A stretch of 64,000 nucleotides of DNA from a virus (IMGVR_UViG_2898597404_000001:1-64000), one strand, 5' to 3'. Numbered from the stretch's first letter, positions 325 to 45,182 are shown. Notes: generated from the letters alone by a model not told the origin. Numbers and translations: made by a program.

Positions 325-367
325 GTCGGGGTGGCGGGATTTGAACCCACGACCTCTTCGTCCCGAA
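325..367 (-). other. att core/attR: 3' half of tRNA-Pro(CGG)
   Basis: Reverse complement TTCGGGACGAAGAGGTCGTGGGTTCAAATCCCGCCACCCCGAC = anticodon loop, T-arm and acceptor 3' strand; 5' half absent; TGACCTGC-like arm motifs near 309, 408 and 451. Confidence 0.88.
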
Positions 368-845: not shown

Positions 846-1049
846 ATGGCCCGCACCAACGCGAAGGTCCACGACATCGACTGCGACGACGACTGCTGCG
901 CGGGCAGCCACGCCGACGCCGTCCGGAGCAAGGTCGACGGCCTGTACGCCGAGGCCGACGACCCCCGCACCTCCCCCGCCCGTGCGCGGGAGCTGGCCGG
1001 GAAGGCGCACCGGCTCCTCGCGACGATCGAGCCCGCGCCCGGCCCCTGA
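846..1049 (+). CDS. Hypothetical protein
   Basis: RBS GAGGAG, phage-like codon usage. Confidence 0.7.
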   Translation: MARTNAKVHDIDCDDDCCAGSHADAVRSKVDGLYAEADDPRTSPARARELAGKAHRLLATIEPAPGP

Positions 1050-1062
1050 CCCTGAACGCGAA

Positions 1063-1093
1063 AGAGAGCGCTCCCGTACCGGGGGCGCTCTCT
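1063..1093. terminator. Terminator hairpin between convergent units
   Basis: AGAGAGCGCTCCC-loop-GGGGGCGCTCTCT. Confidence 0.6.
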
Positions 1094-1103
1094 GCGTCTG
1101 GTG

Positions 1104-1195
1104 GTGCGGGTACGTAGCCCCCGCTCGGGGCGTGACGGTCCGGGCGGCGAGGAAGGCCCAGTTACCAGTCGCAGGTACGAGGCCCCTGCTCGGGC
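1104..1195 (-). repeat. Two copies of the 28-nt structured repeat downstream of the integrase
   Basis: Reverse complement of 1168-1195 = GCCCGAGCAGGGGCCTCGTACCTGCGAC; degenerate copy at 1104-1131. Confidence 0.8.
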
Positions 1196-1208
1196 GTGGC
1201 CTGGAGGA

Positions 1209-2858
1209 TCAGGCGGTGGCGGTGCGCAGCCGCGGCTTGCGCTGGCCGGCCTGGAGCAGCTCGTCGAGGACGGCGACCGGCGAGTGCGGGTCTCGTCCTG
1301 CCGCTCGGTCGAGGTCGGCCCGCTGCGCGAGGGCGGTCTCCCAGCGCTTCTGTAGGGCGTCGCGGAGCTCGGACCGCATGAGCGGTGAGACGTGGCTGTA
1401 GACGGCCTTGATCCCTTGCATGACGTGTCCCATGCGCTCGTGGCGGAGGACGTCCGGGATGCGGTCCTCCTGCATCCAGACCTCGTGCGCGTGGCGGCAG
1501 CGGTGCGGGGTCAGTCCGGTCCTGAGCGGCAGCCACGACGCGAGGGCCGGCCCTTCCGCTCCCTCCGTGACCGATGCCCGGTCCACACGGGGCGTGTGCG
1601 GGACCGTGGCCGCGCCGCTCCGTGAGGTGCAGGGTGTTCCGGTTGGGGCGAGGCACGTCTTCTTTGGGCAGGACACCGCGAGCGCATCCGGGGCGTCGTG
1701 GCGGGTGAGGCCGCGGCCGCGCGGGGGGCTCCACTCCGGGCCCTGCGCGTACGGCCAGGCCGGGCGCAGTGGACGGCCCGTGTTCGCGTCGACGAGGACG
1801 GGCCTTGCGGGGCGCGGGTCCTTCCCTCCCTCCTCCGGGTACACGCCGTCGATGGCCGGGTGCCAGTACCAGGTCCCGAAGTTCGAGCGGCTGTGGTGCG
1901 CGGGGGGGGCGAACTGGTGCCCGTCGTTCGTCACCCTCCCGGCCGTGAGGAAGAGGTAGCGGCCGCTGCCGCCGCAGTCGTCCCGGCAGGAGCAGGTGCC
2001 GGTGGCGCGGTTCTGCATCTGGCGGGACAGCAGGTCGGTCAGGAAGGGCGGCTTGTCGATGCGGCGGGCCGAGTCGTCCTTGGGGGGCACCTTGAGGAAC
2101 TGCCCCCGGTACTCCCGGAGCTGCCAGTCGAGGTCGATGCGGTCCAGGTGGTGGACGTCCTCGTTCTCCAGGCCGAGGGCCTCGCCCCACCGCATCCCGG
2201 TCCAGGCGAGCGTCACGATGTGGATGAACTCGTCGTCCCGGCCGGACATGATCGCGCACCGCTCGGCGACGAGGAGGGCGCCGAGCGGATCGAACCACGA
2301 CTTCTGCGAGCTGCGCGCGCTGCGCTGGTTGCGGTGCCGCTTGCGGCCGCGGCCGCGGCGCTTCTCCGCGACGTTCACGCCCGCGTAGCCCGCAGCCATG
2401 GCATCGCCGAGGATCGTGGAGAGCAGGTCCCGCGCGTCCGATGCCGTCCGTTGGGAGTAGGTGCCGCGCCCCTGGAGCTTCGGCGTCCTGCGGATGCGCT
2501 TCTCCCAGGCCTCGATCTCCTCCCGCCTGTGCAGGCTGTTCAGGGGGCGCTCGCCGAAGGCGGGGATGATGTGCTGGTCGATCAGGTAGCGGTACCTGCC
2601 CTCTGTCGTGTCCTCCAGGTCCTGGGCGGGGAGCCACTGGCCGCACCAGTCGGCGACGGTGATCTCCCCTCGGGCCGGGTCGAACCATGCCGGCCCGGCC
2701 CGGCGGATCTCGGCCTCCTTGTCGTTCCCGTATTGGAGCGCGTCTTGCTTCCGTTCGAACGGTCTTCCCGAGTCGTCGGTCGTCGCTGAGGCCCAGGTGC
2801 CGTCGGGTCTCTTGTAGCGGCTGCGCCAGGTCGGTCCGCGCTTCTCGGCGTACGCCAT
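1209..2858 (-). CDS. int: Tyrosine recombinase (phage integrase)
   Basis: TGMRWGEALGL, TPHRCRH and RMGH...VYSH catalytic motifs; N-terminal arm-binding segment. Confidence 0.93.
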   Translation of the reverse strand: MAYAEKRGPTWRSRYKRPDGTWASATTDDSGRPFERKQDALQYGNDKEAEIRRAGPAWFDPARGEITVADWCGQWLPAQDLEDTTEGRYRYLIDQHIIPAFGERPLNSLHRREEIEAWEKRIRRTPKLQGRGTYSQRTASDARDLLSTILGDAMAAGYAGVNVAEKRRGRGRKRHRNQRSARSSQKSWFDPLGALLVAERCAIMSGRDDEFIHIVTLAWTGMRWGEALGLENEDVHHLDRIDLDWQLREYRGQFLKVPPKDDSARRIDKPPFLTDLLSRQMQNRATGTCSCRDDCGGSGRYLFLTAGRVTNDGHQFAPPAHHSRSNFGTWYWHPAIDGVYPEEGGKDPRPARPVLVDANTGRPLRPAWPYAQGPEWSPPRGRGLTRHDAPDALAVSCPKKTCLAPTGTPCTSRSGAATVPHTPRVDRASVTEGAEGPALASWLPLRTGLTPHRCRHAHEVWMQEDRIPDVLRHERMGHVMQGIKAVYSHVSPLMRSELRDALQKRWETALAQRADLDRAAGRDPHSPVAVLDELLQAGQRKPRLRTATA

Positions 2859-2959
2859 GGGGGGTGGCTCCTTGCGAGGTCAGGAGGTGGGAGGGCGCGT
2901 GCGCGCCCTGGTTTCTCCAGCATGTTGGCCGGTGGGCATGCCCTGGGGGTGGCGAATGC

Positions 2960-4012
2960 TCAAGGCTCGGGATGTCCGGGGGGACGCCGGGACGTCCTGG
3001 GCGGCTTCTCCGTGCTGCCGCTGTCCGGTTGGTCTGTGGCGTCGGCCCGCTGGACGGTTGCGGGTGCCGGCCCGGTGGTGGGGGCGGGGGTCGGTGTGGT
3101 GGGAGGCGTGGGCTGGGCGGGTGGCGTCGGGGTGGTGCTCGCCGGGTCCGGTTGGGCGGGGCTCGCCGTCGGTGGTGTGGTGCTGGCGGTGGGCGGCTTC
3201 GTGGTGGCGGGGGCTGTCCGGGCGGGGTGCGGCGTCCGGGTCCTGGTGGGGGACGGCTTGGGGGTGGAGCTGCGGGAGGTGGCCTTCGGGTCGGGTGCAT
3301 GGCTGGTGGGTGCGCTCATGGCGGTGGTGCTCGGCGGGTCCTGTGTCGGGTGGGCGGCCTGCGAGGGGTGCAGGGCGATGACGGTCGCGGCTGAGGCGGT
3401 GACGGCGGCTGTGCTGGTGACGGCGGCGGCGGGGACGAGGGCGCTCGGCAGGGCGATCTCGGCCTCGCGGATCGCGAGGAGCAGCATCCCGGCGAGCAGG
3501 CTCCAGATCGTGGTGCCGCGGTGGCGTGACCGGTAGGAGCGGCGGGCCAGGTCTCGCACGTGGCGGGCCCGCATGCCCTTGAGGTTCGAGGAGATCACGG
3601 CGTCCGTGCTGAACACGACGCCGAGGAGGCGGGGCGGGAGGTCCTCGCTGCGGAAGACGGTGGGGCGGCGGTCGTCGGAGGCCTGGGTGGTGCGGGCGGT
3701 GAGCCACTGGTAGATGGCGGTCTCCGCGGCCTGGTCGGGCTTGCCGCCCTGGAGGATGCACAGCGCGGGCGGTTGGTCCGAGGAGACGGTGAGCCATGCG
3801 GCGCGCTCGCGGACGGGGCTGGTCGTGGACATGGCGGACCGGAGGGCGGCGGTGAAGTCTTCGGGTGGGGGGATGTCCGCCTGCGGGCGTCCGGACAGGG
3901 TCCTCACGAGGAGACGGAGGCGGGAGATCTCCTGGTCGCGCTCGTCGAGCGTCTCCTTGAGGACCTCGATCCGGCGGTCTGCGATGGCCCTGTTCACGGC
4001 GCGGCCCCCCAT
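2960..4012 (-). CDS. Membrane protein with Pro/Thr-rich C-terminal tail
   Basis: Hydrophobic segments followed by a long P/T-rich region; start may extend to 4114. Confidence 0.65.
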   Translation of the reverse strand: MGGRAVNRAIADRRIEVLKETLDERDQEISRLRLLVRTLSGRPQADIPPPEDFTAALRSAMSTTSPVRERAAWLTVSSDQPPALCILQGGKPDQAAETAIYQWLTARTTQASDDRRPTVFRSEDLPPRLLGVVFSTDAVISSNLKGMRARHVRDLARRSYRSRHRGTTIWSLLAGMLLLAIREAEIALPSALVPAAAVTSTAAVTASAATVIALHPSQAAHPTQDPPSTTAMSAPTSHAPDPKATSRSSTPKPSPTRTRTPHPARTAPATTKPPTASTTPPTASPAQPDPASTTPTPPAQPTPPTTPTPAPTTGPAPATVQRADATDQPDSGSTEKPPRTSRRPPGHPEP

Positions 4013-4168
4013 GGTTGAGATCGTGATGCCGGCGCGGGTGTCTGCACCCGGTCGCCTTGCGGTCACTTTCGGTGATAGCTGTCGATAATGGCCCCTGAAC
4101 CACGGAATACGCAAGATGCGTATTCTGTGTGTCAGGAGTGCCGCTGAAACGAGAGGGGCCCGAGGCCC

Positions 4169-5029
4169 GTGACCGACTACAGTCCGACCGTCCGGCAGCG
4201 CAGGCTCGCGCGTGTGCTCCGGGATCTGAGGGACGAGCGGGAACGCACGGCTTCGGACGTGACGCGGGAGCTCGGCTGGTCGGTCACGAAGCTGACCCGG
4301 CTGGAGGCCGGCCAGATGTCGAAGCCGCAGCTCGGCGAGGTCGGCAAGCTACTGGACCTCTACGGCGTGGTCGGCGATGAGCGGGAGAAGATCCTCGATC
4401 TCGTCCGGCAGGCCCGGGTGAGGGGCTGGTGGCACGGCTACTCGGACAGCATGCCCACCGGGTACGCGACCTACGTCGGGCTGGAAGCGGAGGCCACCGG
4501 TGTCTGGAACTACGAGCCGTCGACGCTCCCCGGCCTGCTCCAGACACCGGACTATTCCCGTGCCCTGATGACCGCGCGAGGGGCGGGTCTGAGCGAGGAG
4601 CAGATCAGGGCGCGGGTGGAGCTGAGGCAGCAGCGGCAGCGGCGGCTGTCCGAAGGGCTGAGGCTGTGGGCGATCCTGCCGCAGGAGGCGTTGGCTCGCT
4701 GCGTCGGCGGGCCCGCCGTCATGCTCCGGCAGGTGGAGCACCTGCTGGAGGTGGGGCGGCTGGAGAACGTCACCCTGCAGGTCGTGCCGCTGGACATCGG
4801 GGCGGTCCCGGCGTCGGGGCCCTTCGCGGTGCTGCGGTTCGAGCACGATCTCGATCCAGAGGTCGTCTACTGCGAGACGCCGGGGGGCGGCCTCTGGGTC
4901 GAGACGGCCGATGAGGTGGCGTCCTTCATGCTCGACTTCCAGCGGTTGATCGCGGTCTCGGCGTCGAGTGCCGATACGTTGAACGTTCTCGCGAAGCGTG
5001 CGGACGAGCTGGGGGGCGGTGCGGGATGA
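4169..5029 (+). CDS. Xre HTH + DUF5753 regulator (WhiJ/Scr1-like)
   Basis: RQRRLARVLRDLR, RGWW..Y, YVGLEAEA and PGLLQTPDY motifs. Confidence 0.92.
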   Translation: MTDYSPTVRQRRLARVLRDLRDERERTASDVTRELGWSVTKLTRLEAGQMSKPQLGEVGKLLDLYGVVGDEREKILDLVRQARVRGWWHGYSDSMPTGYATYVGLEAEATGVWNYEPSTLPGLLQTPDYSRALMTARGAGLSEEQIRARVELRQQRQRRLSEGLRLWAILPQEALARCVGGPAVMLRQVEHLLEVGRLENVTLQVVPLDIGAVPASGPFAVLRFEHDLDPEVVYCETPGGGLWVETADEVASFMLDFQRLIAVSASSADTLNVLAKRADELGGGAG

Positions 5030-5223
5030 GCGCGGATCTCGTGTGGCGGAAGAGTGCGCGGTCGGATGTCAACGGGCAGTGCGTCGAGGTGGCGGCGTCC
5101 GGCGGGGGGATGCTGATCCGCGACTCGCGCGACCCGGGGGGCGGGCGGCTGGGCGTGGGGGCGGCCGGGTGGGCGGCGCTTCTGGCGGACGTGCGGGCCG
5201 GGAGGTACGACGCGCTCCGTTAG
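5026..5223 (+). CDS. DUF397 protein
   Basis: WRKS.RS...GQCVEVA...IRDSRDP. Confidence 0.93.
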   Translation: MSADLVWRKSARSDVNGQCVEVAASGGGMLIRDSRDPGGGRLGVGAAGWAALLADVRAGRYDALR

Positions 5224-5229
5224 GGTCCG

Positions 5230-5997
5230 CTAGGGCTTGCGCCCGACGCCGCCGATCAGGCGCTGGGTGCCGATCTCCGCCGGTTGGTCCGCCCGCCAGC
5301 GCTGCACGTCGGTCAGGCCGTCGACGAGTTCGAGGCCGTCGAACGCCTTGCGGATCACGGGGATCGGCCGCGGCCAGAAGTGACCTTTGAACGCCTGGCG
5401 GACGCGCTCGAGGAACTCGGGCGGCGAGTCCTCGTCGGTGACGTGGGCGACCGCGAGGTAGGAGCCCGGGGCCAGCCGCCGCATCAGGGGCTTGGTCAGC
5501 GTGGCCGGCTCCTGCTCCACGTAGTGCAGGACCGAGGCCAGGAGGACGCCGATGGGCCGCGCCATGTCGAGGTGCTCGGCAGCCTCGTCGAGGATGGGCT
5601 CGGGGTCGCGGACGTCCGCCTGGATGTAGTGGGTGTGGGAGCCGCCGCCGAGGATCGCGCGGCCGTGGGCCAGGACGATGGGGTCGTTGTCGACGTAGAC
5701 GACGCGGGCGTCCGGGATCGAGCGCTGGGCGACCTGGTGGACGTTCGGGGCGGTGGGCAGGCCCGAGCCGATGTCGAGGAACTGGTCGACGCCCTGGCTG
5801 GCGAGGTACTCCACGACCCGGACCATCCACGCTCTGTTCTGGCGGGCGTTCTCGACCAGGTCAGGCCATCGCGAGAGGTACTCCATCGCGTGCTGCCGGT
5901 CTACGGCGAAGTTGTCCTTGCCGCCGAGGAAGTAGTCGTAGACCCGGGCGGGGGAAGGTTCGTTGACGTTCACCTTGTCTGGAATGTGCCTCGCCAT
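5230..5997 (-). CDS. Actinobacterial SAM-dependent methyltransferase (Methyltransf_19-like)
   Basis: PSPARVYDYFLGGKDNF, QFLDIGSGLPT, VVYVDNDPIV. Confidence 0.92.
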   Translation of the reverse strand: MARHIPDKVNVNEPSPARVYDYFLGGKDNFAVDRQHAMEYLSRWPDLVENARQNRAWMVRVVEYLASQGVDQFLDIGSGLPTAPNVHQVAQRSIPDARVVYVDNDPIVLAHGRAILGGGSHTHYIQADVRDPEPILDEAAEHLDMARPIGVLLASVLHYVEQEPATLTKPLMRRLAPGSYLAVAHVTDEDSPPEFLERVRQAFKGHFWPRPIPVIRKAFDGLELVDGLTDVQRWRADQPAEIGTQRLIGGVGRKP

Positions 5998-6063
5998 GCG
6001 TGGATGCTCGCATGGCGGGTGGATCAAGGTATAGATCAGTGGCCGGGTGCGGACACAACGTGT

Positions 6064-6468
6064 TCAGGCGGACGCGGAGTGTTCCTGGCCAGGGGGTGTC
6101 TGCTCGGCGAGGGCGTCGCGGTAGGTGGTGAGGCTGCGGATGGCTATCTCGCGCTCCTCTTCGCTGAGGTCGGGGATGTCCCAGATCGCTCGGAGGCCGG
6201 GGTCGTCGCCGACGAAGTCGGGGTAGGCGGGGGGCGCGAGGATCGCGCTGAGGGTGCCGTCCTCCAGTTGTAGGACCTTCTCCAGTCGACGGATCGTCCG
6301 CGGCTGGATGGTGCCCCAGCGGCGGCCGTTCTCCAGCTCGCTCAGGACCTTCACGCTGGGGCCGCCTGCGGCCTTCAGGTCTGCCTGGCCCAGGTCCAGG
6401 TCGATGCGTCGATCCTTGATGATCTTTCCCGCCCGCAGGTGGGCCGCGGGGGGTGGTGCCGTCTCCAA
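6064..6468 (-). CDS. Xre-family HTH, candidate immunity repressor
   Basis: IIKDRRIDLDLGQADL..GGPSVKVLSELENGR; divergent from the early operon. Confidence 0.75.
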   Translation of the reverse strand: METAPPPAAHLRAGKIIKDRRIDLDLGQADLKAAGGPSVKVLSELENGRRWGTIQPRTIRRLEKVLQLEDGTLSAILAPPAYPDFVGDDPGLRAIWDIPDLSEEEREIAIRSLTTYRDALAEQTPPGQEHSASA

Positions 6469-6535
6469 GAGGGTGCCCTTCTAGTGGTGGCGCCCTCTGA
6501 TGATGCCCGACCGGGGGGATGGGGGTCTACGTACG

Positions 6536-6700
6536 GCGCGTATCCGCGCGTATCGGCGCGTATTGACATGTTGCCAACGGGGCCGAACGGGACCGAAGTG
6601 CGTCCGCGCGTGGCCTGGACTCTGGGGAGGTCATAGCGCGTACTCACTGGTATCTACTGGTCATTACTTGTACTTACTAGTCATGGCTAGTACTATTCCT
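6536..6700. promoter_or_regulatory. Lysis-lysogeny switch region with 10-bp-phased direct repeats
   Basis: GCGCGTAT x3 (6536, 6546, 6556); TTGACA at 6563; ACT(G/T/A)GT-type repeats x5 at 6645-6694. Confidence 0.65.
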
Positions 6701-6702
6701 AT

Positions 6703-6957
6703 ATGCATAGCAACGAGGAAGAACTTCCGGAAGGGGGTAGCCCGACCTCTGAGGAGGCCCTGATTCCGCCGGAGGACGTGGCGCGTCTCTTCAACAAATC
6801 GACTCGCTGGCTCAAGGACCAGGCGCGCCGGGGCAGGATCCCGCACCGCCGGGTCGGCCGGAGCTACGCGTTCGCCGCCGAGGACATCGCGGCGATGCGC
6901 GAGCAGTTCGGGCGGCCGGTGGGGAGCGGCGCCGGGTCGCGCAGAGGCCGGGCATGA
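6703..6957 (+). CDS. Excisionase/MerR-like HTH (Cro-position gene)
   Basis: LIPPEDVARLFNKSTRWLKDQARRGRIPHRRVGRSYAF. Confidence 0.8.
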   Translation: MHSNEEELPEGGSPTSEEALIPPEDVARLFNKSTRWLKDQARRGRIPHRRVGRSYAFAAEDIAAMREQFGRPVGSGAGSRRGRA

Positions 6958-7199
6958 CCTCCCCCGCGTGCGAGGACGACTGTCCGCACACGCACAGCCC
7001 CGCCGACGCGGCGCAGCGGCTCGGGGTCTCCGAGTCGACGCTGCGCCAGCAGGCCGCCCGCCGCACGGTCCCGTCGACTCTGATCGGCGGTCGGCTCTCG
7101 TTCTCCGACGCGGACCTCGCAGAGATCATCGCGGCCGGCCAGCGCACGGTCCTGCCCGCCCGCACCGCCCGCAGCAGTCCACGTCGGCGCACCCGCTGA
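6954..7199 (+). CDS. Excisionase-like HTH protein
   Basis: SPADAAQRLGVSESTLRQQAARRTVPSTLIGGRLSFS. Confidence 0.8.
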   Translation: MTSPACEDDCPHTHSPADAAQRLGVSESTLRQQAARRTVPSTLIGGRLSFSDADLAEIIAAGQRTVLPARTARSSPRRRTR

Positions 7200-7223
7200 C
7201 CACCCCCCGAAAGGAGGCTCTCC

Positions 7224-7490
7224 ATGGCCGCCGCACGCGCCTCACGCCCCGGCGAGGTCACAGCGAGCGAGCTGGGTCCGGGCTTCGTGATCCGGCGGCA
7301 TGGCAGCGAGCTGGAGATCAAGCTCGCCATCCCGTGGGCCGCCCGCAGCCGAGGCGGCCCCGGAGTGTTCGTCATCTGGCGCGTCCTGGGCTCGGAGCCC
7401 GACGTGCTCTACGGGGACGGCGTGTTCGCTCGCGACATGCCGTTCCGCCTCATCCGGCGGCCGATCGCCGGAGCCACTGAACAGGAGTAG
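7224..7490 (+). CDS. Hypothetical protein
   Basis: RBS AAGGAGG, operon context. Confidence 0.65.
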   Translation: MAAARASRPGEVTASELGPGFVIRRHGSELEIKLAIPWAARSRGGPGVFVIWRVLGSEPDVLYGDGVFARDMPFRLIRRPIAGATEQE

Positions 7491-7494
7491 ATCA

Positions 7495-7686
7495 ATGTCC
7501 CGACAGCCCATCAACGCGGACGAGCTGCTGACCCCGGCCGAGGTCGCGACGATGTTCCGCGTCGACCCGAAGACCGTGACCCGCTGGGCCAAGGCCGGCA
7601 AGCTCACCTCGATCCGGACGCTGGGCGGCCACCGCCGCTACCGCAAGGACGAGGTCGTCGCGCTGCTGCAGGGCCCGGCCCGGTGA
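7495..7686 (+). CDS. bldC: BldC-family developmental regulator
   Basis: LLTPAEVATMFRVDPKTVTRWAKAGKLTSIRTLGGHRRYR matches the BldC core; RBS AGGAG before ATG 7495. Confidence 0.9.
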   Translation: MSRQPINADELLTPAEVATMFRVDPKTVTRWAKAGKLTSIRTLGGHRRYRKDEVVALLQGPAR

Positions 7687-8216
7687 TCAGCCTCCTCGGC
7701 ACGGAGCTGCCCGGCCAGGTGATCGGCCAGGACGCCGAGTTCTACGCCGTGCGGTACCACCAGCCCGGGGTCGGCGTCAGCCTGGACGTCTGCGGCTCCG
7801 AGGACCAGCTCCCGAAGGCACTGCGGGAGTACCTGGCGGACGGTGCCGAGGCCGAGCCGGTCAGGGTCATCGTCCGCGTCGACGGCGACCTCAAGCACCG
7901 GGTCTTCGTGCGGCACGTCCGCGAGCGCATCGCCGAGATCGCCACCGAATGCTCGACCGGGAGGGTCAGCTACCGGCTGGCGCTGGCCCGGCTGGGCCGC
8001 GTCACGCGGCACCTCGGGGAACTCGACCGGTCGGACAAGTTCGTCGAGCTGCTCGACGAGATGGCCCGCCGAGACGAGCTGCTGCGCCCCGCCAAGGGGC
8101 GCTGGGCGGACAACCCCGGCGAGAGCCGCCGAAAGCTCCTGGAGGCCGCCGAGGCGCGCATCCAGGAGGCGATCGACGCCCTCGCCGGAGGACCGAGCAC
8201 GGTCATCGAGCCCTAG
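7683..8216 (+). CDS. Hypothetical protein
   Basis: GTGA overlap with upstream gene. Confidence 0.7.
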   Translation: MISLLGTELPGQVIGQDAEFYAVRYHQPGVGVSLDVCGSEDQLPKALREYLADGAEAEPVRVIVRVDGDLKHRVFVRHVRERIAEIATECSTGRVSYRLALARLGRVTRHLGELDRSDKFVELLDEMARRDELLRPAKGRWADNPGESRRKLLEAAEARIQEAIDALAGGPSTVIEP

Positions 8217-8319
8217 CAGGGCTCCGGCGCGAGGACGGCAGGGCCGCGGACTTGGCGGTTACGGCCCTGTCGTCCCTGCCTCCACACACACACGAACACC
8301 GTACCGAAGGAATCACTGA

Positions 8320-9669
8320 ATGGATTCCCCTAGGGAGTACAAGACCCATCGGCCGTCCGGCCAGAAGGCGCCTCCCCTGGTCCTCCTCGAAGGCGGGGAG
8401 AAGACGGGGAAGAGCTACAAGGCGGCCGAGTTCACCGGCTCGGACCGGCTGAGCCGGTCGTTCTGGATCGAGTTCGGCGAGGTCACCGCCGAGGAGTACG
8501 GCAAGGTGCCCGGCGCGAACTACGAGATCGTCGAGTGGGACGGCACCTACGCCGACCTGTACGGCGCGATCCAGTGGGTCCACGGCAGGGCGCAGGCCGC
8601 CCGCGCGGCGGGTGAGAAGCCGGTGAGCCTGACCATCGACACCATGTCCGCGGAGTGGGAGCTGCTGCGCGGCTGGGTGAACAACCGGGCCCGCGCGGCG
8701 AGGTTCAACAGGGAGAAGCTGGAGGCCGATCCGGACGCCGAGATCGTGATCTTCCCGAACCTGTGGAACGACGCGAACGACCGCGACTCGGCGATCATGC
8801 GGCTCCTCATGACCTTCCCCGGCATCGTGATCATGATCTGCCGGGGCAAGAAGGTCGCCGCGTTCGACGAGGCCACCGGGCGGCCCATCGAGGGCCGGAC
8901 GGACTACCGGGTCGAGGGCAACAAGCTGATCGCGTCCCGCGCCTCGTGCTGGGTGCGCCTGTCCCTGGACGAGCCGCCCAAGCTCATCGGCTGCCGGAAG
9001 GTCCCCGGCGGGATCGTGCCCGGCGTCAACAAGCCGAAGACGCTCAAGAAGACCTGGACGCTGGAACAGGTGATCTTCGAGGAGCTCGGCTACGACCCGG
9101 AGGCCTCGCAGGTCCCCAACCTGGTCTCCCCGAAGCCGGAGCGGCCGCCGGAGGACATCGCCGCCGACGCCCTGGCGCCCGGCGCCTCCCTGTCCAGGCT
9201 CTGCGAGCTGTGGGAGGAGGGCAGGCGCTCCCGCTACGGGTCGGTCACCGTCTCGAACGAGAACGGGCAGGAGGAACTGCTCCCGCACCTGCTCAAGCGG
9301 AAGATCGACGAGCACAAGGGCGTGCGCGTCAGCGCGGCCCAGATCCAGCGGATGGAAGCCCTCTGGCCGAAGGTCCCGCTGTCCGACGCCGGGGAGCGGG
9401 CCTCGTTCGTGCGGGAGGTCGTCGGCCGCCCGGTGAACGGGCCGAACGACCTGACCGGTGCCGAGATGGAGCAGCTCATCGCGCGGCTCGACGCGTGGGC
9501 GCAGCAGGAGACCCCGCCCCAGGCCGGCCACGAGCCGGACGGTTCGCCCGACGGCGAGAAGCCGCCCGCCGAGCCGGGCGGGGGCGACGTCGGCCCCGGC
9601 GAGGACGCCCTCGACGAGGACGACCTGGACGACGGCGACCGGTACACCGCGCCCTGGACGGCGGCCTGA
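8320..9669 (+). CDS. AAA-family P-loop ATPase (Sak4-like recombination protein)
   Basis: Walker A GGEKTGKS, Walker B LTIDT, acidic C-terminus. Confidence 0.7.
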   Translation: MDSPREYKTHRPSGQKAPPLVLLEGGEKTGKSYKAAEFTGSDRLSRSFWIEFGEVTAEEYGKVPGANYEIVEWDGTYADLYGAIQWVHGRAQAARAAGEKPVSLTIDTMSAEWELLRGWVNNRARAARFNREKLEADPDAEIVIFPNLWNDANDRDSAIMRLLMTFPGIVIMICRGKKVAAFDEATGRPIEGRTDYRVEGNKLIASRASCWVRLSLDEPPKLIGCRKVPGGIVPGVNKPKTLKKTWTLEQVIFEELGYDPEASQVPNLVSPKPERPPEDIAADALAPGASLSRLCELWEEGRRSRYGSVTVSNENGQEELLPHLLKRKIDEHKGVRVSAAQIQRMEALWPKVPLSDAGERASFVREVVGRPVNGPNDLTGAEMEQLIARLDAWAQQETPPQAGHEPDGSPDGEKPPAEPGGGDVGPGEDALDEDDLDDGDRYTAPWTAA

Positions 9670-9708
9670 CCGGCTGCCCCTGACCTACGAACGAGAAGGA
9701 GCACGAGC

Positions 9709-10335
9709 ATGAACATCAAGGAGATGGCGCTGCGGCTGGCCCTGCAGCAGGCCGTGTCGGAGGCGTCGACGGCCAGCTACAAGCGGGCCCGCACCGAGGC
9801 CGAGCCCGTGTTCGCGAAGGCGTACCGGGAGATGGGCACCGAGTCGCTCGGTGTGTGGCTGCCGGGCGGCCCGAAGATCGCGAAGATCAGCATCAAGGGC
9901 GGCAAGGTCACGTACCGGCTGCACGAGGCGGAGCTGCTCGCGTTCGTGGAGCGGCACCAGCCGAGCGAGGTCGAGGAGTTCATCGACCCGGTGGAGGCGA
10001 CCCGCCCGGAGGTCCTGGAGCTGATCCGGGAGCACCGGCCGGACATCCTGCGGCGGCGGGTGCGCCCGGTCTGGCACGAGGCGAAGGCGAAGGAGGCCGC
10101 GGAGAACGGCGGCTACCTGGTGGACCCGGAGTCCGGGGAGAAGGTCAAGGTCGCCGACGTGACGGTGCATCCGCCGTCCGGGGAGTTCGCGTTCACGCCG
10201 GACAAGGGGAAGCGCGGCGAGGTGCTGGCGGCCCTCCGGGACCCGGCGCTCGCGGAGCAGGCGGGGGTCGCGGATCTGCTGTCGCTGCTCGGCGTGGATG
10301 ACGGGGCCGCCGGGGAGTCCGGCGGCGAGCGGTAG
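9709..10335 (+). CDS. Hypothetical phage protein
   Basis: RBS AAGGAG, codon usage. Confidence 0.75.
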   Translation: MNIKEMALRLALQQAVSEASTASYKRARTEAEPVFAKAYREMGTESLGVWLPGGPKIAKISIKGGKVTYRLHEAELLAFVERHQPSEVEEFIDPVEATRPEVLELIREHRPDILRRRVRPVWHEAKAKEAAENGGYLVDPESGEKVKVADVTVHPPSGEFAFTPDKGKRGEVLAALRDPALAEQAGVADLLSLLGVDDGAAGESGGER

Positions 10336-10351
10336 GGGCTGTGGCCCTGAT

Positions 10352-10522
10352 GCCCGCGCGGGGGCTTCGTACCCGCGACTTCCCGAAAGTCGACTCGCGC
10401 CCGCGCGGGGGCTTCGTGCCCGCGACGATCAGTTGGCCAGTGCAGTGCCCGCGCGGGGGCTTCGTACCCGCGACACCAGATGAGCACCTATCGCGCCTGA
10501 GCTGGGGCTTCGTACCGGCGGC
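10352..10522 (+). repeat. Mini-array: four copies of the 28-nt structured repeat
   Basis: Copies at 10352, 10399, 10447 and 10495 (GCCCGCGCGGGGGCTTCGTACCCGCGAC type). Confidence 0.9.
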
Positions 10523-10538
10523 ACCTGAACGGCTTCCG

Positions 10539-10599
10539 TCCCTGAATTTGGCCTCTCGCATTGACATAGGCACTGATATAGGCCAAACTTAGGGACATA
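10539..10599 (+). promoter_or_regulatory. Phage promoter/operator copy 2 plus upstream partial site
   Basis: TCCCTGAATTTGGCCT, then TTGACA-N17-CAAACT-TAGGGACATA. Confidence 0.8.
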
Positions 10600-10624
10600 A
10601 GCCACTCAGTCAGCGGGAGCGCAC

Positions 10625-26201: not shown

Positions 26202-26690
26202 ATGGAGATCCCGCAGCGGCTCGCCCACCTGCCGGTCTGCCCCCGCAGGAACGTCCCCGTCCCCTACGCCAACATCACCACCGAGGACGGGCAGCACGAC
26301 TTCACCGCCCTCGACTCCGCCAAGGTCGTCCGCCTCGCCGCCGAACGCCGCTGCGGCATCTGCGAGGACACCCTGGACTACTGGATCGTGTTCCTCGGCG
26401 GCGAGCGCAGCGCCCAGAGCCGCGCCTACACGGACCCGCCGATGCACGAGGAGTGCGCACGGTTCGCGGCCCGAACCTGCCCCTACGTCACCCGCGCCCA
26501 CATGAGCCGCCGCAAGACGCCCCTCACCCCCGACACCACCGTCCCGAAGGGCTTCTCCGAGGACAAGCCCGCCGAGTTCCTCCTCTACTTCACCCGCAGC
26601 TACAAGCACCAGGTCACCCGCGACGGCGTCCTGTTCCGCCCCGCCCCCGCCGTCCGCCTCGAACGCTGCGGCTACAGCGCAGCCTCCTGA
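26202..26690 (+). CDS. Conserved actinophage Zn-binding hypothetical protein
   Basis: VPVPY...RRCGICEDTL...DPPMHEECARFAARTCPY. Confidence 0.75.
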   Translation: MEIPQRLAHLPVCPRRNVPVPYANITTEDGQHDFTALDSAKVVRLAAERRCGICEDTLDYWIVFLGGERSAQSRAYTDPPMHEECARFAARTCPYVTRAHMSRRKTPLTPDTTVPKGFSEDKPAEFLLYFTRSYKHQVTRDGVLFRPAPAVRLERCGYSAAS

Positions 26691-26710
26691 CCGAGAAAGG
26701 AACGGACCGA

Positions 26711-27280
26711 ATGACCGAGACCACCGAGACGACCGAGAAGCGGCGCGAATCCAGGCTGTCCCCCGCCGGGCTCGCCGCGCTGCTGGAGCTGGCCGCCGCC
26801 GAGATGGACCCCGACGCGATCACCGCGTTCGCCGAGACCGCCGCCCGCCTGGACGACCGCCACAGCATCAAGAACAAGTACGCCATCTGGGTCCAGTGCC
26901 CCGACGCCGTCCAGGTCTACGGCTACATGGAATGGCAGCAGCACGGCCGCCAGGTCCGCTACGGCCAGTCCGCCATCGGGATCTTCGCCCCCCTCACCCG
27001 CCGGACCGGCACCGAGGAGAAGGGAGGCGAGGACGCCAAGCGCACCCCCGAGGAGAAGGCAGGCAAGGACGAGAAGAGCCGCGAACGGGTCCTCCACGGC
27101 TTCAAGGTCGCCTGGGTCTACGACCTCTCCCAGACCAAGCCCCTCGACTGCCCATGCCCCCGGAAGGGCCCCTGCACCTGCCCGCCCCCCGAACCGCCCG
27201 CCCCGGCCGGCACCGCCCCGCCGACCGGAGACATACAGGACCTGCTCGACGCCCTGACCGAGGACCCGGACGACCAGTAG
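26711..27280 (+). CDS. ArdC-like N-terminal ssDNA-binding domain protein
   Basis: HSIKN.YAIWVQCPDA.QV.GY.EWQQHGRQVRYGQSAIGIFAP...VYDLSQT. Confidence 0.8.
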   Translation: MTETTETTEKRRESRLSPAGLAALLELAAAEMDPDAITAFAETAARLDDRHSIKNKYAIWVQCPDAVQVYGYMEWQQHGRQVRYGQSAIGIFAPLTRRTGTEEKGGEDAKRTPEEKAGKDEKSRERVLHGFKVAWVYDLSQTKPLDCPCPRKGPCTCPPPEPPAPAGTAPPTGDIQDLLDALTEDPDDQ

Positions 27281-27295: not shown

Positions 27296-29077
27296 GCCCG
27301 AACGGGGGCCTCATGCCCGTGACGACAAGCCAGTCGATGCCACGCCCGCGCGGGGGCTTCGTGCCCGCGACGATCAGCAGCTCGGAGCAGCGCCCGTGCC
27401 GGGGCTTCGTACCGGCGACGCTCCATGCCTCCACGCCCGCGCCGGGGCTTCGTACCCGCGACCAGGCAGGTCTGTACCTCGTGCCCAAGCCGGGGCTTCG
27501 TACCCGCGACCACCGGCTCGCCGCCGCGACGCCCGCGCGGGGGCTTCGTACCCGCGACGCAGGAGGTCTGACCTCCACGCCCGAGCCGGGGCTTCGTACC
27601 GGTGACAACAGGTCGCCGACAGCCGAACGGGGGGCAGGGCCCGCAGCACACTGAGGCCCGCTATGCCCTGGAAGGGCCTCACGCAGCCGTGAGCGGCCCC
27701 CCGACGCACCCTCTGGGAGCAATAATGGGTCCACTCGGCGGGCTCCTCCGATGCCCGCGCCGGGGCCTCGTACCGGCGACGGCGCGCGAATGTGACCACG
27801 CCCGAGCGGAGGGCTTCGTACCCGCGATGGAGGGTCACCCCCGCCACGCCCGAGCCGGGGCCTCGTACCCGCGACAGACGCACCCCCGCCCGGCCACGCC
27901 CAAGCCGGGGCTTCGTACCGGCGGCCCGGAACTGGGAGCGACGCCCAAGCCGGGGCCTCATACCGGCGGCCCTGTAAGGGGAGCAGACGCCCAAGCCGGG
28001 GCCTCATACCGGCGGCCGATGAGCAGGGGTCCAAACGCCCAAGCCGGGGCTTCGTACCGGCGGCCCCAGAGAGAAGGCCGACGCCCGAGCCGGGGCCTCG
28101 TACCGGCGACTACGCGACGGAGTCACATGCCCGCGCCGGGGCCTCGTACCGGCGACCCGGTACCGGGGGAGCAGCGCCCGAGCCGGGGCTTCGTACCGGC
28201 GACCAAGTTCGAGACGACCGATGCCCGAGCCGGGGCCTCGTACCGGTGACTACGAGATCGAACCCCATGCCCGAGCCGGGGCTGCGTACCGGCGACTGTA
28301 GATGCCTCAGGACCATGCCCGCGCCGGGGCCTCGTACCGGCGACTACGGAGAGGGCGCCCCACGCCCGAGCCGGGGGCTTCGTGCCCGGCGGCAAGCCAT
28401 CGGACTCCTCCAGGCCCGAGCCGGGGCTTCGTACCGGTGATCAGCGGAAGCTGCTCGGCGCCCGCGCGGGGGCTTCATGCCCGCGACGTAGCAGGAACAG
28501 CCCACCCCAGCCCGGCGAGGGGAGCCCGAGTGGCCCTGGAAGGGCCTCACGCAGCCGTGAGCGGCCCCCCGGCGCACCCCGCAGGGGCTATAAGGGAACG
28601 CGGCGGTGTCACCAGGCCCGAGCCGGGGCTTCGTACCGGCGAACGAGCAACCGACTTTCCCCAACGCCCACGCAGGGGCCTCGTACCTGCGACGCGCAGA
28701 TGTAGCTGTCCACGCCCGAGCCGGGGCTTCGTACCGGCGACATCCACAACCTCCTGCGCTGCGCCCGAGCCGGGGCTTCGTACCGGCGACATGGCATGCA
28801 GACTCGTCACGCCCGAGCCGGGGCCTTGTACCGGCGACACACGACGACCACCCATGCCCGTGCCGGGGCCTCGTACCGGTGACACGGCGACGAGTCGTCC
28901 TCACGCCCGTGCCGGGGCCTTGTACCGGCGACATTGCCTGGATGATCGCTATGCCCGAGCCGGGGCCTCGTACCGGCGACTCAGCGCAAGGACCCGCGCC
29001 CGAGCCGGGGGCTTCGTACCCGGCGGCGGCCAACCGGCACTTCGGTCACGCCCGCGCAGCGGCTTCGTAGCTGCGAC
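27296..29077 (+). repeat. Non-coding array of 33 structured 28-nt repeats with 15-22-nt unique spacers
   Basis: Consensus GCCCGAGCCGGGGCYTCGTACCGGCGAC, period ~47 nt, blocks of 7, 16 and 10 separated by two related inserts. Confidence 0.95.
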
Positions 29078-40545: not shown

Positions 40546-40568
40546 GGGGGCAACCCCAGGTTGCCCCC
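40546..40568. promoter_or_regulatory. Palindrome GGGGGCAACC-N3-GGTTGCCCCC, copy 2
   Basis: Intergenic between terL and portal. Confidence 0.7.
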
Positions 40569-40593
40569 CACCGGCCGCACAGGAGAGGCAGGC

Positions 40594-42030
40594 ATGGCAG
40601 GCACCACCGACCTCACGACAGGGCTGGAGCAGCTCGACAAGGCCCGCGCCGACTACGACGAAGCCGAGGACTTCTACGAGGGCAACGTCGACGAGATCTT
40701 CACGACCGCCAAGGTCCGCCGCCTCCTCGCCAAGGCCCGCCTCGACAAGCTCCGCGACCTGAACTTCGCCAAGACCCCCGTCGACAAGGTCGTCTCCCGC
40801 CTCAAGATCACCGGCCTCACCGCCCTCACCCCCGCAGGCGACCCCGACGAGGAAGCCCAAGCCGACCTCGAGGCCACCTGGAGGCGCAACAACCTCGGCG
40901 TCACCCTCCACGACCTCATCCAGCACGTCTCCACCTACCGGGACGGCTACCTCTTCGTCTGGCCCTCCGACCCCGCCGACGACGAAGAGGCCGGCACCCC
41001 CGACACCACGGCCGGCACCGAAGACGCCTCCGCCGTCGACGTCCTCATCAACGACCCCCGCACCGTCACCGTCGTCTACTCGGAGGAGAACCCCGGCCAC
41101 GCCCTCTACGCCGTCAAGAAGTGGTGCTCCGACCCCACCAAGGGCAGAGAGGTCCACCAGGCCCGCGTCTACTACCGCGACCGCATCGAGCGCTACCAGT
41201 CCGCCCCCGGCAGCAAGGGCGCCGACGCCGAGGACTGGACGAAGCAGGGCGACGACCTCGACAACCCCTACGGCAGACTCCCCGTCTTCCACCTCAACAT
41301 CCCCCGCCCCGAGCACTACTGGGCGTACACGCCCCAACTGATCATCAACAAGATCGTGCTGATGCACCTGGCCACCGTCGACCACCTCTCCTTCAAACAG
41401 AGGTACGGCCTCCAGGACCCCCGCCTCGACGACATCTCCGGCGGCGCCGACTTCGACGAGGACCACCCCGACGACGACGACCCCGAGAACGAGGACAACG
41501 AGGTCCGCCTCCGCTCCGACCCCGGCGACTTCTGGCACCTCAAGGGCTACTCCGGCGTCGGCGAGTTCTCCGCCTCCGAACCCGGCAACTTCCTCGACCC
41601 CCTGAACTTCTACATCCGCTGCATGGCCCAGCTCACCGACACCCCCCTGCACTACTTCGACCCCACCGGGAACCTGCCGTCCGGCGAGTCCCTCAAGGTC
41701 GCCGACGCCCCCCTCACCGACAAGATCGACAACCGCAAGGAGCGCTACACCGCCCGGATCGAGGCCGCCGCCGAGTTCATCCTCCGCGTCCTCGGCCACG
41801 ACGACGTCCGCGTGGTCGTCGACTGGGGCCCCTCCGGAACCGAGACCGAGACCCGCTCCTCCGTCGACCTCGAACTCGACCGCGCCAGCAAGGTCATCGC
41901 GATGCTCAACGAGCTCGCGGCCGCCGTGGTCGCCGAGATCATGACCCCGCAGGACGCCAAGGACATGATCAGCCGCCTCATGGACCTGGTCAGCGGAGAC
42001 CAGGACGAGAAGAAAGGAATCGCCGCATGA
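40594..42030 (+). CDS. Portal protein (SPP1 gp6-like)
   Basis: FYEG, NFAKTPVD, NPYGRLPVFH, PSGESL; position after terL. Confidence 0.88.
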   Translation: MAGTTDLTTGLEQLDKARADYDEAEDFYEGNVDEIFTTAKVRRLLAKARLDKLRDLNFAKTPVDKVVSRLKITGLTALTPAGDPDEEAQADLEATWRRNNLGVTLHDLIQHVSTYRDGYLFVWPSDPADDEEAGTPDTTAGTEDASAVDVLINDPRTVTVVYSEENPGHALYAVKKWCSDPTKGREVHQARVYYRDRIERYQSAPGSKGADAEDWTKQGDDLDNPYGRLPVFHLNIPRPEHYWAYTPQLIINKIVLMHLATVDHLSFKQRYGLQDPRLDDISGGADFDEDHPDDDDPENEDNEVRLRSDPGDFWHLKGYSGVGEFSASEPGNFLDPLNFYIRCMAQLTDTPLHYFDPTGNLPSGESLKVADAPLTDKIDNRKERYTARIEAAAEFILRVLGHDDVRVVVDWGPSGTETETRSSVDLELDRASKVIAMLNELAAAVVAEIMTPQDAKDMISRLMDLVSGDQDEKKGIAA

Positions 42031-42926
42031 CCCCCCTACTGGACGACACCGGCCGGCCCGCGCTCGCCTCGGTCCGCTGGACGGCCACCCGCCAGGACGA
42101 GGACGGCCGCTGGTGGCACGCCTACACCGACGGAACCCGCCTCCCCGCCGTCCACGGCGCCGAGGGCGACGACGACGATGACGACGGCGGCAGCGGCGGC
42201 GGCAGCGGCGGCGGCAGCGGCGGCGGCGAGGACGACGAGGACGACGACGATGACGGCGGCGAGGACGACGACTACACCCCGCCGTCCCGAGAGGAATGGG
42301 AACGCGCCCAGCAGAAACTCAAGCGCGCCAACCGCGAGGCCGCCCGCCGCCGGAAGTGGCTCGACGACCACGGCATCGACCCCCACACCGGGCAGGCCCG
42401 GAAGGAGGACACCGGCGCCGACGACGACCAGGACGCCCCGAAGCCCAACGCGAAGAAGGCGGACACCGGCAAGGACGCCGACCCCGACGACGACACCGGC
42501 GGCTTCACCGAGGAGCAGGTGACCGCCCGCGTCCGCCGCGCCGTCGACCGCGCCACCGCCCGCACCGAACTGCGCTACAAGCTCCCCCTCGCCCGCTCCG
42601 CCGCCGAAGCCGCCCTCGCCCGCGCCAACTTCAACGGCAAGTCCCTGGACCGGGTCATGAAGCTCATCGACCTCGACGAGATCGACCTCGACGACGACGG
42701 CGAGATGATCGGCCTGGACGACCAGATCGAGCAGATCCGCGAGGACTTCCCCGAATGGTTCTCCCCGCGCCGCCGCCGCCGCGCCACCGACAACACCACC
42801 AGCGGCGGCGGGAACGGTGCCCGCGCCGGGACCAAGGACGTCGGCGGCGCGAACAAGAAGCCCGACAAGGACGACAAGGCGAAGACCTGGAAGGAGACCC
42901 TCGCCGAGCGCATGGGCAGTAGCTGA
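42027..42926 (+). CDS. Capsid scaffolding protein
   Basis: Acidic/Gly-rich region, ANREAARRR, GLDDQIEQIREDFPEWF. Confidence 0.8.
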   Translation: MTPLLDDTGRPALASVRWTATRQDEDGRWWHAYTDGTRLPAVHGAEGDDDDDDGGSGGGSGGGSGGGEDDEDDDDDGGEDDDYTPPSREEWERAQQKLKRANREAARRRKWLDDHGIDPHTGQARKEDTGADDDQDAPKPNAKKADTGKDADPDDDTGGFTEEQVTARVRRAVDRATARTELRYKLPLARSAAEAALARANFNGKSLDRVMKLIDLDEIDLDDDGEMIGLDDQIEQIREDFPEWFSPRRRRRATDNTTSGGGNGARAGTKDVGGANKKPDKDDKAKTWKETLAERMGSS

Positions 42927-43153
42927 CCGCCGGGCGGGCTCCGGGACACGACCCCGGAGCCCGCCCAGGTCATCGACCACCCGAGGGGCCGCGAGGTATC
43001 GTGACCGCGACGCGGACCCCTTGATCACGAAGGGGGGCCGCTGGCACGTCCGCGAGGATGACGGAGCGCCCGAGAGGGCAGGCGGGCCGAGAGGCCACCA
43101 GGAAGCCCGTGAGGGCACGCAAACCGTCCAGCGGGCAAGCCAGGAGGTCTCTC

Positions 43154-44248: not shown

Positions 44249-44369
44249 CGGACGCTGACGGCCGCTGACGGCCGCACTGGACGTCTGGCCAGGGGGGCGC
44301 CGACCGGGGGGCGGGGACCCCTGGCCAGACATGACCACACCAGCAGGCACCGACAGCGGGGGAGGGGGA

Positions 44370-44795
44370 ATGGCGAACTGGGCCACCGTCGACGACGTCG
44401 ACACCTACACCGGCGTGACGGTCGAGGAACCCGACCTCGTCCGCGCCGAACTCCTCGTCGGCCTCTTCGCCGACGCCGACCCGGAAGACACCGACGCCGC
44501 GATCTCGAAGAAGAACCTGCGGCTCCTCCGCGCCGCCGTCGCCTACCAGGCCGCCTGGATGCAGCACCACCCCGACGTCTTCCTCAACCTCGACGCCACC
44601 TCGATCAGCCAGGACGGCGTTTCGGTCGGCCACTCCCACGACAACGCAGGCATCCTCGCCCCGCTCGCGAAACGGTCCATCGACCGCCTCTCCTGGCGCC
44701 GCTCCCGCAGCCTCCGCACCCAGGACCAGCCACGCCGGTTCCCGAAGGATTCGGTGTTCTACGACGTCTTCGACCGGGGCTGGAGGGACCTGTGA
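44370..44795 (+). CDS. Head-to-tail adaptor
   Basis: WATVDDV..TG, AVAYQAAWM, LAPLAKR; start may be 44331. Confidence 0.75.
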   Translation: MANWATVDDVDTYTGVTVEEPDLVRAELLVGLFADADPEDTDAAISKKNLRLLRAAVAYQAAWMQHHPDVFLNLDATSISQDGVSVGHSHDNAGILAPLAKRSIDRLSWRRSRSLRTQDQPRRFPKDSVFYDVFDRGWRDL

Positions 44796-45127
44796 GGTCC
44801 CGCGCCACGACCACGGTCAGCATCCTCCGCACCCCGCCCGGCACCGTCGACGCCTACGGCGACCCCGTCGACACCGACACCCCGATCGCGACCCGCATCC
44901 CCGCCTCGATCATCCTCCGCACCGTCCGCCAGTACCTCCCCGACGAGCACCGCACCACCACCGTCGAGACCCACACCGGCCGCCTCCGCGCCGACATCGA
45001 CGTCCAGCCCGACGACCGCCTGAAAGACGAACGCACCGGAACGATCTACAGCATCGAGAACATCGCCCGCCCCCAGTCCTACGCGGGCCTCCCAGACCTC
45101 CACCTCGACCTCAAGCGAACCACCTGA
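44792..45127 (+). CDS. Head closure/stopper protein
   Basis: DAYGDPVD, DRLKDERTG.IY.I. Confidence 0.72.
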   Translation: MRSRATTTVSILRTPPGTVDAYGDPVDTDTPIATRIPASIILRTVRQYLPDEHRTTTVETHTGRLRADIDVQPDDRLKDERTGTIYSIENIARPQSYAGLPDLHLDLKRTT

Positions 45128-45182
45128 ACCCCCGGTCAACGGGGGGACCGACCCGACAGGTCCGCCGTCAAGGAGACCTCCA

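Follow-up and report, generated by a model that had tools for sequence, protein, structure and literature searches.

In a 64,000-nucleotide (nt) stretch of viral DNA (IMGVR_UViG_2898597404_000001:1-64000, corresponding to G000:C28:12899-76898 in the host assembly and called the window below), sets of a short repeat stand directly behind genes and always point in the direction in which those genes are transcribed. What is this repeat, and why do its copies follow transcription? We conclude that the units are very probably the repeats, that is, the CRISPR RNA (crRNA) scaffolds, of a CRISPR system of type V-M, with a Cas12m effector, that resides on a temperate phage of 83.4 kb inserted at a tRNA-Pro gene. 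The identification follows from three observations: a cas12m gene lies directly upstream of one of the arrays, the unit has the hairpin and pseudoknot of a Cas12m crRNA with covariation in both, and the units are separated by unique spacers of guide length.

The 13-nt core motif of the repeat, allowing at most one mismatch, matched the window 36 times against 0.50 expected, and none of 100 shuffles reached this count. A profile built from the units, which are 28 nt long and have the consensus GCCCGAGCCGGGGCTTCGTACCGGCGAC, identified 39 copies in the window in sets of 2, 4 and 33 (arrays A1, A2 and A3) and 33 further copies just right of it (array A4), for a total of 72, all located on contig C28 between the two attachment (att) repeats of the prophage. 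Upstream of the strongly conserved 28 nt, positions -32, -30 and -29 are weakly conserved, and two units are degenerate, namely the second of A1 (at its 3' end) and the first of A4. When the 9.65-Mb assembly was searched with the profile, 72 matches were found on C28 and four elsewhere, the latter with E-values of 0.41-8.9 and none of them significant. The core motif gave 65 matches on C28, all in the prophage, and 39 isolated matches on 18 other contigs, 38 of which contained a mismatch. A host-wide repeat resembling a repetitive extragenic palindrome (REP) or bacterial interspersed mosaic element (BIME), the possibility that the original prediction had itself raised against its reading, was rejected, as the significant copies are confined to one prophage of the genome. 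A blastn search of phage and plasmid collections with the main array, A3, returned no match.

The gene adjoining A4 encodes a protein of 849 amino acids (aa; P0001). Among Protein Data Bank sequences it matched 8pm4 (3.6e-49) and Cas12m2 (8hhl, 7.3e-46), and it matched the PADLOC model for Cas12u1 with an E-value of 7.2e-105; searches against Pfam and NCBIfam gave no match. An AlphaFold model of the protein (mean predicted local distance difference test score 71.9) had Cas12m2 (8hhl, 1.3e-28) and GoCas12m (5.3e-27) as its best Foldseek matches, with the next family at 1.6e-6. In alignments, the three positions of the RuvC triad are occupied by H (in 'ALHIGW'), D (in 'VAVDAWD') and D (in 'DQD'), as in Cas12m2. 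Judged by its sequence and predicted fold, the protein is a Cas12m (type V-M) homologue with a putatively nuclease-dead H-D-D triad. This triad defines the Cas12m2 clade, whose members bind DNA without cutting it according to the sections available of two studies (PMC10442227; PMC11013384), and by analogy with these relatives the prophage protein would be expected to do the same. The open reading frame (ORF) is intact over its 849 codons, with no stops, and is the only Cas12m match in the host genome. Among 104 genomes of the genus, three had a match with an E-value of at most 1e-8, including one weak match (8.7e-16), and none with an E-value of at most 1e-10 was found in 300 sampled genomes of the family. 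The usual Cas12m has about 600 aa, and the greater length here is due to two insertions; this long form was otherwise found only in two Actinomadura proteins, P0002 (63% identity) and P0003 (52%).

The mature crRNA of PmCas12m is described as about 33 nt of repeat followed by a guide of about 17 nt that forms a 17-bp heteroduplex, with positions -28 to -26 pairing with -17 to -15 and positions -23 to -20 pairing with -6 to -3 (10.64898/2026.03.26.714355, in the sections available). When the consensus of the prophage unit is numbered from -28 to -1 in the same manner, its 5' GCC faces the GGC of the loop, forming the pseudoknot, and the two halves of the stem face each other. Pairing was counted over 86 units, many of them kin within one genome, representing 65 distinct sequences: the 72 prophage units, ten from a related locus in a second genome of the genus, two from an array in an IMG/VR phage contig, and two solitary units. 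Over hairpin and pseudoknot together, 91.8% of the cells were paired and six of the ten pairs were changed on both sides, and none of 500 shuffles reached any of the five pairing and covariation measures used. If the partner strand was slid by one to three columns, pairing dropped to only 21-51%. The hairpin is G+C-rich and 5-7 bp long, and the pseudoknot helix is 99% paired, with changes on both sides at two of its three pairs. From its sequence, then, the unit is predicted to adopt the fold published for Cas12m crRNA, with a hairpin and a pseudoknot placed just 5' of the guide. The two solitary units come from two other Actinomadura genomes (L003:3040-3067 and L004:7728-7755, both on the minus strand); in the second of these, no Cas12m homologue was found with the 849-aa query, making its copy an orphan repeat unit.

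The sequences between the units were then considered as guides. Counting from the 28-nt unit, there are 63 gaps shorter than 60 nt, of which 61 span 15-23 nt with a mode of 20 nt (two gaps of 15 nt, two of 16, three of 17, ten of 18, 12 of 19, 22 of 20, four of 21, five of 22, and one each of 23, 26 and 33). Since positions -32, -30 and -29 are still weakly conserved, the freely variable part amounts to about 16 nt, and the arrays have a period of about 47 nt, divided into a repeat of 28-32 nt and a spacer of about 16-20 nt. A variable part of this size fits a guide, given the 17-bp heteroduplex reported for PmCas12m in the sections of that work available. In an all-versus-all comparison among the 72, only two related pairs stood above shuffled controls (27431/27528 and 82955/83248, the latter in extrapolated coordinates), so that the spacers are nearly all unique; a relationship between a spacer of A2 and one of A3 (GATCAG...GCAG), which the original prediction had described, was not among these pairs. 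The 72 units thus show what generally characterizes a CRISPR array, namely direct repeats, unique spacers and a tight length distribution, and the arrays look like mature crRNAs set end to end.

All four arrays lie within a single element. The left border of this element is a 43-bp sequence that is identical at 43 of 43 positions (C28:13223-13265 and C28:96619-96661) to the right attachment site, attR, which is the 3' part of the gene for tRNA-Pro(cgg). The integrase gene, the four arrays and all that lies between them are enclosed by these repeats and so form part of a single integrated element 83.4 kb long. Its virion genes, which encode portal, major head, tail and tape-measure proteins, show the element to be a phage, more precisely a temperate siphovirus-like phage integrated at tRNA-Pro, in agreement with its earlier description as a prophage. 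Its tape-measure protein has 1252 aa, and it also encodes a beta-helix protein, an Rv2525c-like (lysin-like) hydrolase and an XRE-DUF5753 regulator. The portal protein is at most 34.5% identical to the portals of Streptomyces phages, no close relative was found among sequenced phages, and only one phage record contained a distant Cas12m-like ORF. Elsewhere in the assembly, a 42-nt match (92.9%) to the core of the tRNA-Pro attachment site is located at C36:16670-16711 on a 21-kb contig of lower G+C content, which may be another element with a similar attachment site.

With the units identified in this way, the orientation of the copies can be addressed. In each array the first unit lies 13-16 nt behind a stop codon, and the array shares the orientation of the ORF upstream, confirming that the copies follow transcription. 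The two minus-strand copies behind the integrase gene and the four plus-strand copies of A2 were recovered 13 and 16 nt after the respective stops, where 14 and 17 nt had been given, and the main array begins 15 rather than 16 nt after its stop; the description of the gene preceding the main array as ArdC-like is less secure, as the ArdC-N match is below threshold (E=0.0017). The original prediction had also remarked that the neighbors of the arrays are all DNA-transaction genes. Their functions look incidental; the feature common to the arrays is their position after a stop codon. Three further findings extend that account: A4 and the cas gene, both located right of the window; the spacing of the two minus-strand copies, 65 nt instead of about 47 nt; and two related segments, 146 and 128 nt long, that divide A3 into three blocks.

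From these observations, we infer how the arrays would be transcribed, processed and directed to their targets. Read-through from the upstream operon would transcribe each array, and the leader-like segments may add transcription starts within the larger arrays. Each unit would fold into the hairpin and pseudoknot and be bound by Cas12m. A unit together with its spacer is already close in size to a mature crRNA, so a single cut in each unit would set free a guide of about 16-20 nt. The complex of Cas12m and crRNA would bind DNA flanked by a protospacer-adjacent motif (PAM) without cutting it, blocking transcription or replication; it would be aimed at competing mobile elements and possibly also at some host loci. 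For relatives of this Cas12m, both self-processing of the precursor crRNA and PAM-dependent DNA binding without cleavage are known from the parts of the literature available. An array that depends on the promoter of a neighbor must point the neighbor's way, as a Cas12 crRNA is read with the repeat first and the spacer after it. The observed strand polarity would thus be explained by the arrays sitting 13-16 nt behind stop codons, a position that fits read-through transcription. Nearly all phage genes are on the plus strand, which leaves A1 as the only real test of this rule within the prophage. All ten units detected in the related locus are on the strand of cas12m, and all five units in the IMG/VR array are on one strand.

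The two larger arrays contain segments that may be internal promoters or leaders. Both leader-like segments in A3 include a conserved block (window 27660-27735 and 28530-28600) in which a CTCACG-CAGC-CGTGAG hairpin precedes a patch richer in A+T (ATAAT or TATAAG). The corresponding gap in A4 has in common with them only the last part of the conserved block. Strong hairpins follow A1 and A4, and a long hairpin follows A2. The one after A4 has a folding energy of -32.1 kcal/mol (z -8.0), and the one after A1 is a possible terminator of the transcript that comprises integrase and A1; a consensus terminator scan found nothing at this location (1045..1102).

In most respects the system resembles type V-M (formerly V-U1), as represented by MmCas12m/Cas12m2, GoCas12m, MsCas12m and PmCas12m. 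The effector shares homology, fold and H-D-D triad with these, the array is likewise co-oriented and directly downstream of the gene, no Cas1 was found in the genome, and the repeat has the same layout (5'-GCC ... stem-GGGGCTT loop-stem-AC 3') with hairpin and pseudoknot. Location on a mobile element is also shared; for type V-M, enrichment on plasmids and occurrence in some prophages have been described (PMC11656645, in the sections available). The Cas12m locus of A. silvanus pMESIL02 has eight repeats of about 37 nt that lie downstream of the gene and share architecture and orientation with those of the prophage; this Cas12m is studied in PMC11013384. A Cas12m locus on a Mycobacterium plasmid has two repeats of the same architecture and orientation, and a complete 210-kb IMG/VR phage contig contains a canonical array, with a 36-nt repeat ending in the same 28 nt, together with a distant Cas12-like ORF. 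In a second genome of the genus (G332:C67, L010:10300-12200), a cas12m gene encoding a 53%-identical protein is followed by co-oriented units and then by a 3' fragment of a tRNA gene. The array at that locus is irregular and more diverged, with varied loops and covarying stems, and the order cas12m, array, att is again found at the end of an integrated element.

The prophage system differs from these in three ways. Its 72 guides are divided among four transcription units, separated by as much as 82 kb; its period is about 47 nt, in contrast to 66-78 nt in the arrays of A. silvanus pMESIL02, the Mycobacterium plasmid and the IMG/VR phage; and its effector has 849 aa, with insertions common only to the two other Actinomadura proteins. 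CRISPR-Cas systems encoded by phages are known from ICP1 (type I-F) and from huge phages (Cas12j/CasPhi), which have their own effector and arrays without adaptation genes and for which counter-defence and competition between elements have been proposed as uses. Here, by contrast, the carrier is a temperate 83-kb prophage, the effector is predicted to bind DNA and not to cut it, and the arrays are compact.

Placement behind stop codons, co-orientation with the upstream ORF and the G+C-rich hairpin of the unit would also suit elements of the 3' untranslated region that act independently of any Cas protein, such as RNase blocks, terminators or antiterminators. Such elements would need neither 33 units in a row nor unique spacers of 16-20 nt, a single unit folds no better than shuffles (z -0.4 and -0.5), scans found no T-tract terminators, and the units are confined to the element that encodes Cas12m and possess, with compensatory changes, the pairing between 5' GCC and loop GGC that is found in the Cas12m crRNA. 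We consider this explanation extremely improbable. The role envisaged in the original prediction was thus broadly correct in being exerted at the RNA level and in involving a protein-binding site, whereas its other proposals (exonuclease block, processing signal, terminator or antiterminator) give way to evidence for a Cas12m crRNA scaffold. Practically no credence is given to a role at the DNA level, in which the units would be iterons, a partition centromere or recombination sites of a phage protein. Tandem, regularly spaced repeats on a mobile element near replication and recombination genes would fit such a role, but the compensatory changes at six of ten pairs, including the pseudoknot, point to a folded single strand, and duplex sites do not require a strict polarity relative to transcription. 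The stoperators of cluster A mycobacteriophages are asymmetric sites distributed through the phage genome and always oriented with transcription; these are duplex repressor sites of 13-14 bp rather than structured RNA units with unique spacers.

If the arrays were RNA anti-CRISPRs, they would be decoys that soak up the Cas12m of the host or of a competitor and would not provide guides. Solitary repeat units and mini-arrays mimicking CRISPR repeats do occur in phages (PMC11656645, in the sections available), the scattered sets of two and four units, with their repeats of a resident CRISPR system, resemble these, and solitary units exist in the two other Actinomadura genomes mentioned above, one of which yielded no Cas12m with the query used. 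In this prophage, however, the cognate cas12m is within the same att-bounded element and abuts one array, two arrays have 33 units each, no second Cas12m was found in the genome, and unique spacers of guide length are not needed for a decoy, so that we regard this alternative as highly improbable. It is also very unlikely that the arrays are decaying, non-functional relics, as might be suspected from the lack of a detected Cas1, the short spacers, the irregular and more degenerate array of the G332 relative and the degenerate units in A1 and A4. The cas12m ORF is intact, and 91.8% pairing with compensatory changes is maintained over 65 distinct variants. No seed of at least 10 nt flanked by TTN, the PAM of relatives, was found inside the prophage; this gives no sign of autoregulation and, with only 0.36 expected, is a weak point against decay.

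Several observations weigh against the assignment to type V-M. The period of about 47 nt is shorter than the 66-78 nt of the three canonical arrays examined, and the canonical V-M geometry, in which repeats measure about 36-37 nt and spacers at least 30 nt, was not found here, A1 alone looking canonical with its 65 nt. No natural V-M array with a geometry of about 47 nt was found described in the portions of the literature examined, supplementary tables of native loci excepted. No CRISPR-DR family of Rfam matched the arrays, and at gathering thresholds the window and L001 gave only tRNA. Relative to a 50%-identical protein of 613 aa, the effector has two insertions, at residues ~208-335 and ~391-493; in the AlphaFold model, the first is beta-rich and the second is a helical bundle that ends in a beta hairpin and is winged-helix-like. 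No Cas1 (PF01867) that could account for the origin of the 72 spacers was found in the genome, which is 97.68% complete; the same search found Cas1 in seven of 14 reference genomes used as a control and did not extend to Cas2, Cas4 or a trans-activating crRNA. No targets were found for the 39 window spacers in the host genome, the search having been made there and not in public collections; in large databases, chance matches to guides of 16-19 nt are about as frequent as true hits. Finally, scans for consensus sigma-70 promoters and terminators at the arrays found nothing.

The guides were compared with the host genome with and without a PAM. If the PAM was disregarded, the 72 guides gave 300 seeds of 12 nt against 177-287 in five controls, 23 matches with at most one mismatch in 16 nt against 12-20, and 30 match clusters against 16-23, which we judge to be no clear excess. 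Two spacers of the main array match contig C36 with two mismatches and without TTN, and these matches were treated as chance. A 5'-TTN PAM is reported for GoCas12m and was used for PmCas12m, according to the sections of those reports available. Guides were next required to match exactly from the PAM-proximal end with TTN directly upstream, TTN being the PAM of relatives and possibly not that of this protein, and several match thresholds were tried. At 12 nt, seven guides matched (shuffle mean 2.9; 26 of 1000 shuffles reached seven), at 13 nt five (mean 0.85; 1 of 1000 reached five), and at 14 nt four (mean 0.23; 0 of 1000 reached four). There were 27 matches of 14 nt with any flank, and the four with TTN compare with 0.43 expected, while reverse-complement, reversed and complement controls had no TTN among 71, 32 and 12 matches, respectively. 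Under looser criteria the excess came from the same four guides (5 against 1.0, 7 of 1000 shuffles; 12 against 6.3, 23 of 1000).

The four guides with TTN-flanked matches, of 14-15 nt, are all in A4, and two of the matches span exactly the variable part of the spacer (15/15 and 14/14 nt). One of the sites is near a host Wadjet type II operon (C19:164240-171000; JetA2 1.6e-195, JetC2 E=0), which itself adjoins a SARP/NB-ARC/TPR regulator and an NAGPA-family ORF. Three of these sites were scanned for consensus promoters and terminators, with no useful result. As a group, the TTN-flanked matches are suggestive rather than proof of targeting. It is conceivable, if doubtful, that the non-cutting Cas12m gives the prophage a natural form of CRISPR interference against its own host, with the guides of A4 silencing host genes in the lysogen. 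Compact arrays spread over four operons would then pack and time the guides without adaptation machinery, and, if true, this would be a case of a phage naturally reprogramming host transcription by CRISPR interference, possibly including defence loci.

As a type V-M system, what appeared to be an unexplained satellite repeat becomes a complete phage-borne RNA-guided system, one that goes beyond known V-M descriptions in its compact arrays, its guides over four operons and its larger effector with two added domains. That the period of repeat plus spacer equals the length of a mature crRNA raises the matter of how, without Cas1, such arrays come to be assembled and processed. A temperate phage with its guides in four operons could express stage-specific sets of them, and the compact arrays could serve as a design for multiplexed Cas12m guides.

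Table 1. Coordinates of the arrays, their neighboring features and the TTN-flanked host matches (positions without a contig name are those of the window)
Feature	Position	Strand	Remarks
attL	325..367	.	43-bp perfect direct repeat of tRNA-Pro(cgg) 3' part; left prophage border
Strong hairpin right after A1	1045..1102	-	-31.3 kcal/mol, z -4.36, 0/200 shuffles as good
Array A1	1103..1195	-	2 units, 65 nt start to start; starts 13 nt after integrase stop
Integrase-like ORF, 549 aa	1209..2858	-	Phage_int_SAM_3 4.2e-5; Phage_integrase 0.0076, below cut-off
208-aa ORF	9709..10335	+	phrog_11955 (function unknown); stop 16 nt before A2
Array A2	10352..10522	+	4 units; spacers of 19, 20 and 20 nt
Long hairpin between A2 and helicase ORF	10523..10624	+	-42.1 kcal/mol, z -5.03
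UvrD-type helicase ORF	10625-12106		Downstream of A2
275-aa ORF, weak ArdC-N match	26453..27280	+	PF08401 E=0.0017, 19 bits against cut-off of 22.6; stop 15 nt before A3
Array A3 (main)	27296-29077	+	33 units in blocks of 7, 16 and 10
A3 block 1	27296..27606	+	7 units
Leader-like spacer 1 in A3	27607..27752	+	146 nt; conserved block of ~75 nt including hairpin, common to spacer 2
A3 block 2	27753..28487	+	16 units
Leader-like spacer 2 in A3	28488..28615	+	128 nt
A3 block 3	28616..29077	+	10 units; last unit with compensatory stem changes GCAGC/GCTGC
Virion gene block	40561..59267	+	Portal, major head protein, tape-measure protein, tail proteins
cas12m homologue, 849 aa (P0001)	C28:92272-94821 = L001:6273-8822	+	Right of window, directly upstream of A4
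Array A4	C28:94838-96511 = L001:8839-10512	+	33 units; 16 nt after cas12m stop; ~18 kb beyond right end of window
Host match	C19:172658		Intergenic; 256 nt upstream of ORF string running into jetA2 and jetC2 (Wadjet type II operon)
Host match	C10:150718		Between VMAP (vWA-MoxR-associated)/EAD2 gene and AAA plus NB-ARC-TPR (STAND) pair
Host match	C12:62561		Ends at ribosome-binding site of DUF397 (BldB-like) gene, beside XRE-DUF5753 regulator
Host match	C14:254574		12 nt upstream of CMD-family ORF

Other features of the prophage were noted in addition to the arrays. Downstream of the main array (29225-31728 and 34688-36394), the window encodes a cupin-domain ORF, a DegT/DnrJ/EryC1-type aminotransferase and a 568-aa ORF resembling phosphoadenosine phosphosulfate (PAPS) reductase (phrog_2302, 3.9e-76), which may together form a sugar or DNA modification module. 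Repeats were also found at two other places in the window. Those inside the tape-measure gene (49832-50071) are in frame and have periods of 33 and 132 nt. The other is a 33-nt tandem repeat of 4.7 copies at 15533-15686 (a period of 67 also scored), which contains a GGGGCC...GGCCCC hairpin and is unrelated to the CRISPR unit.

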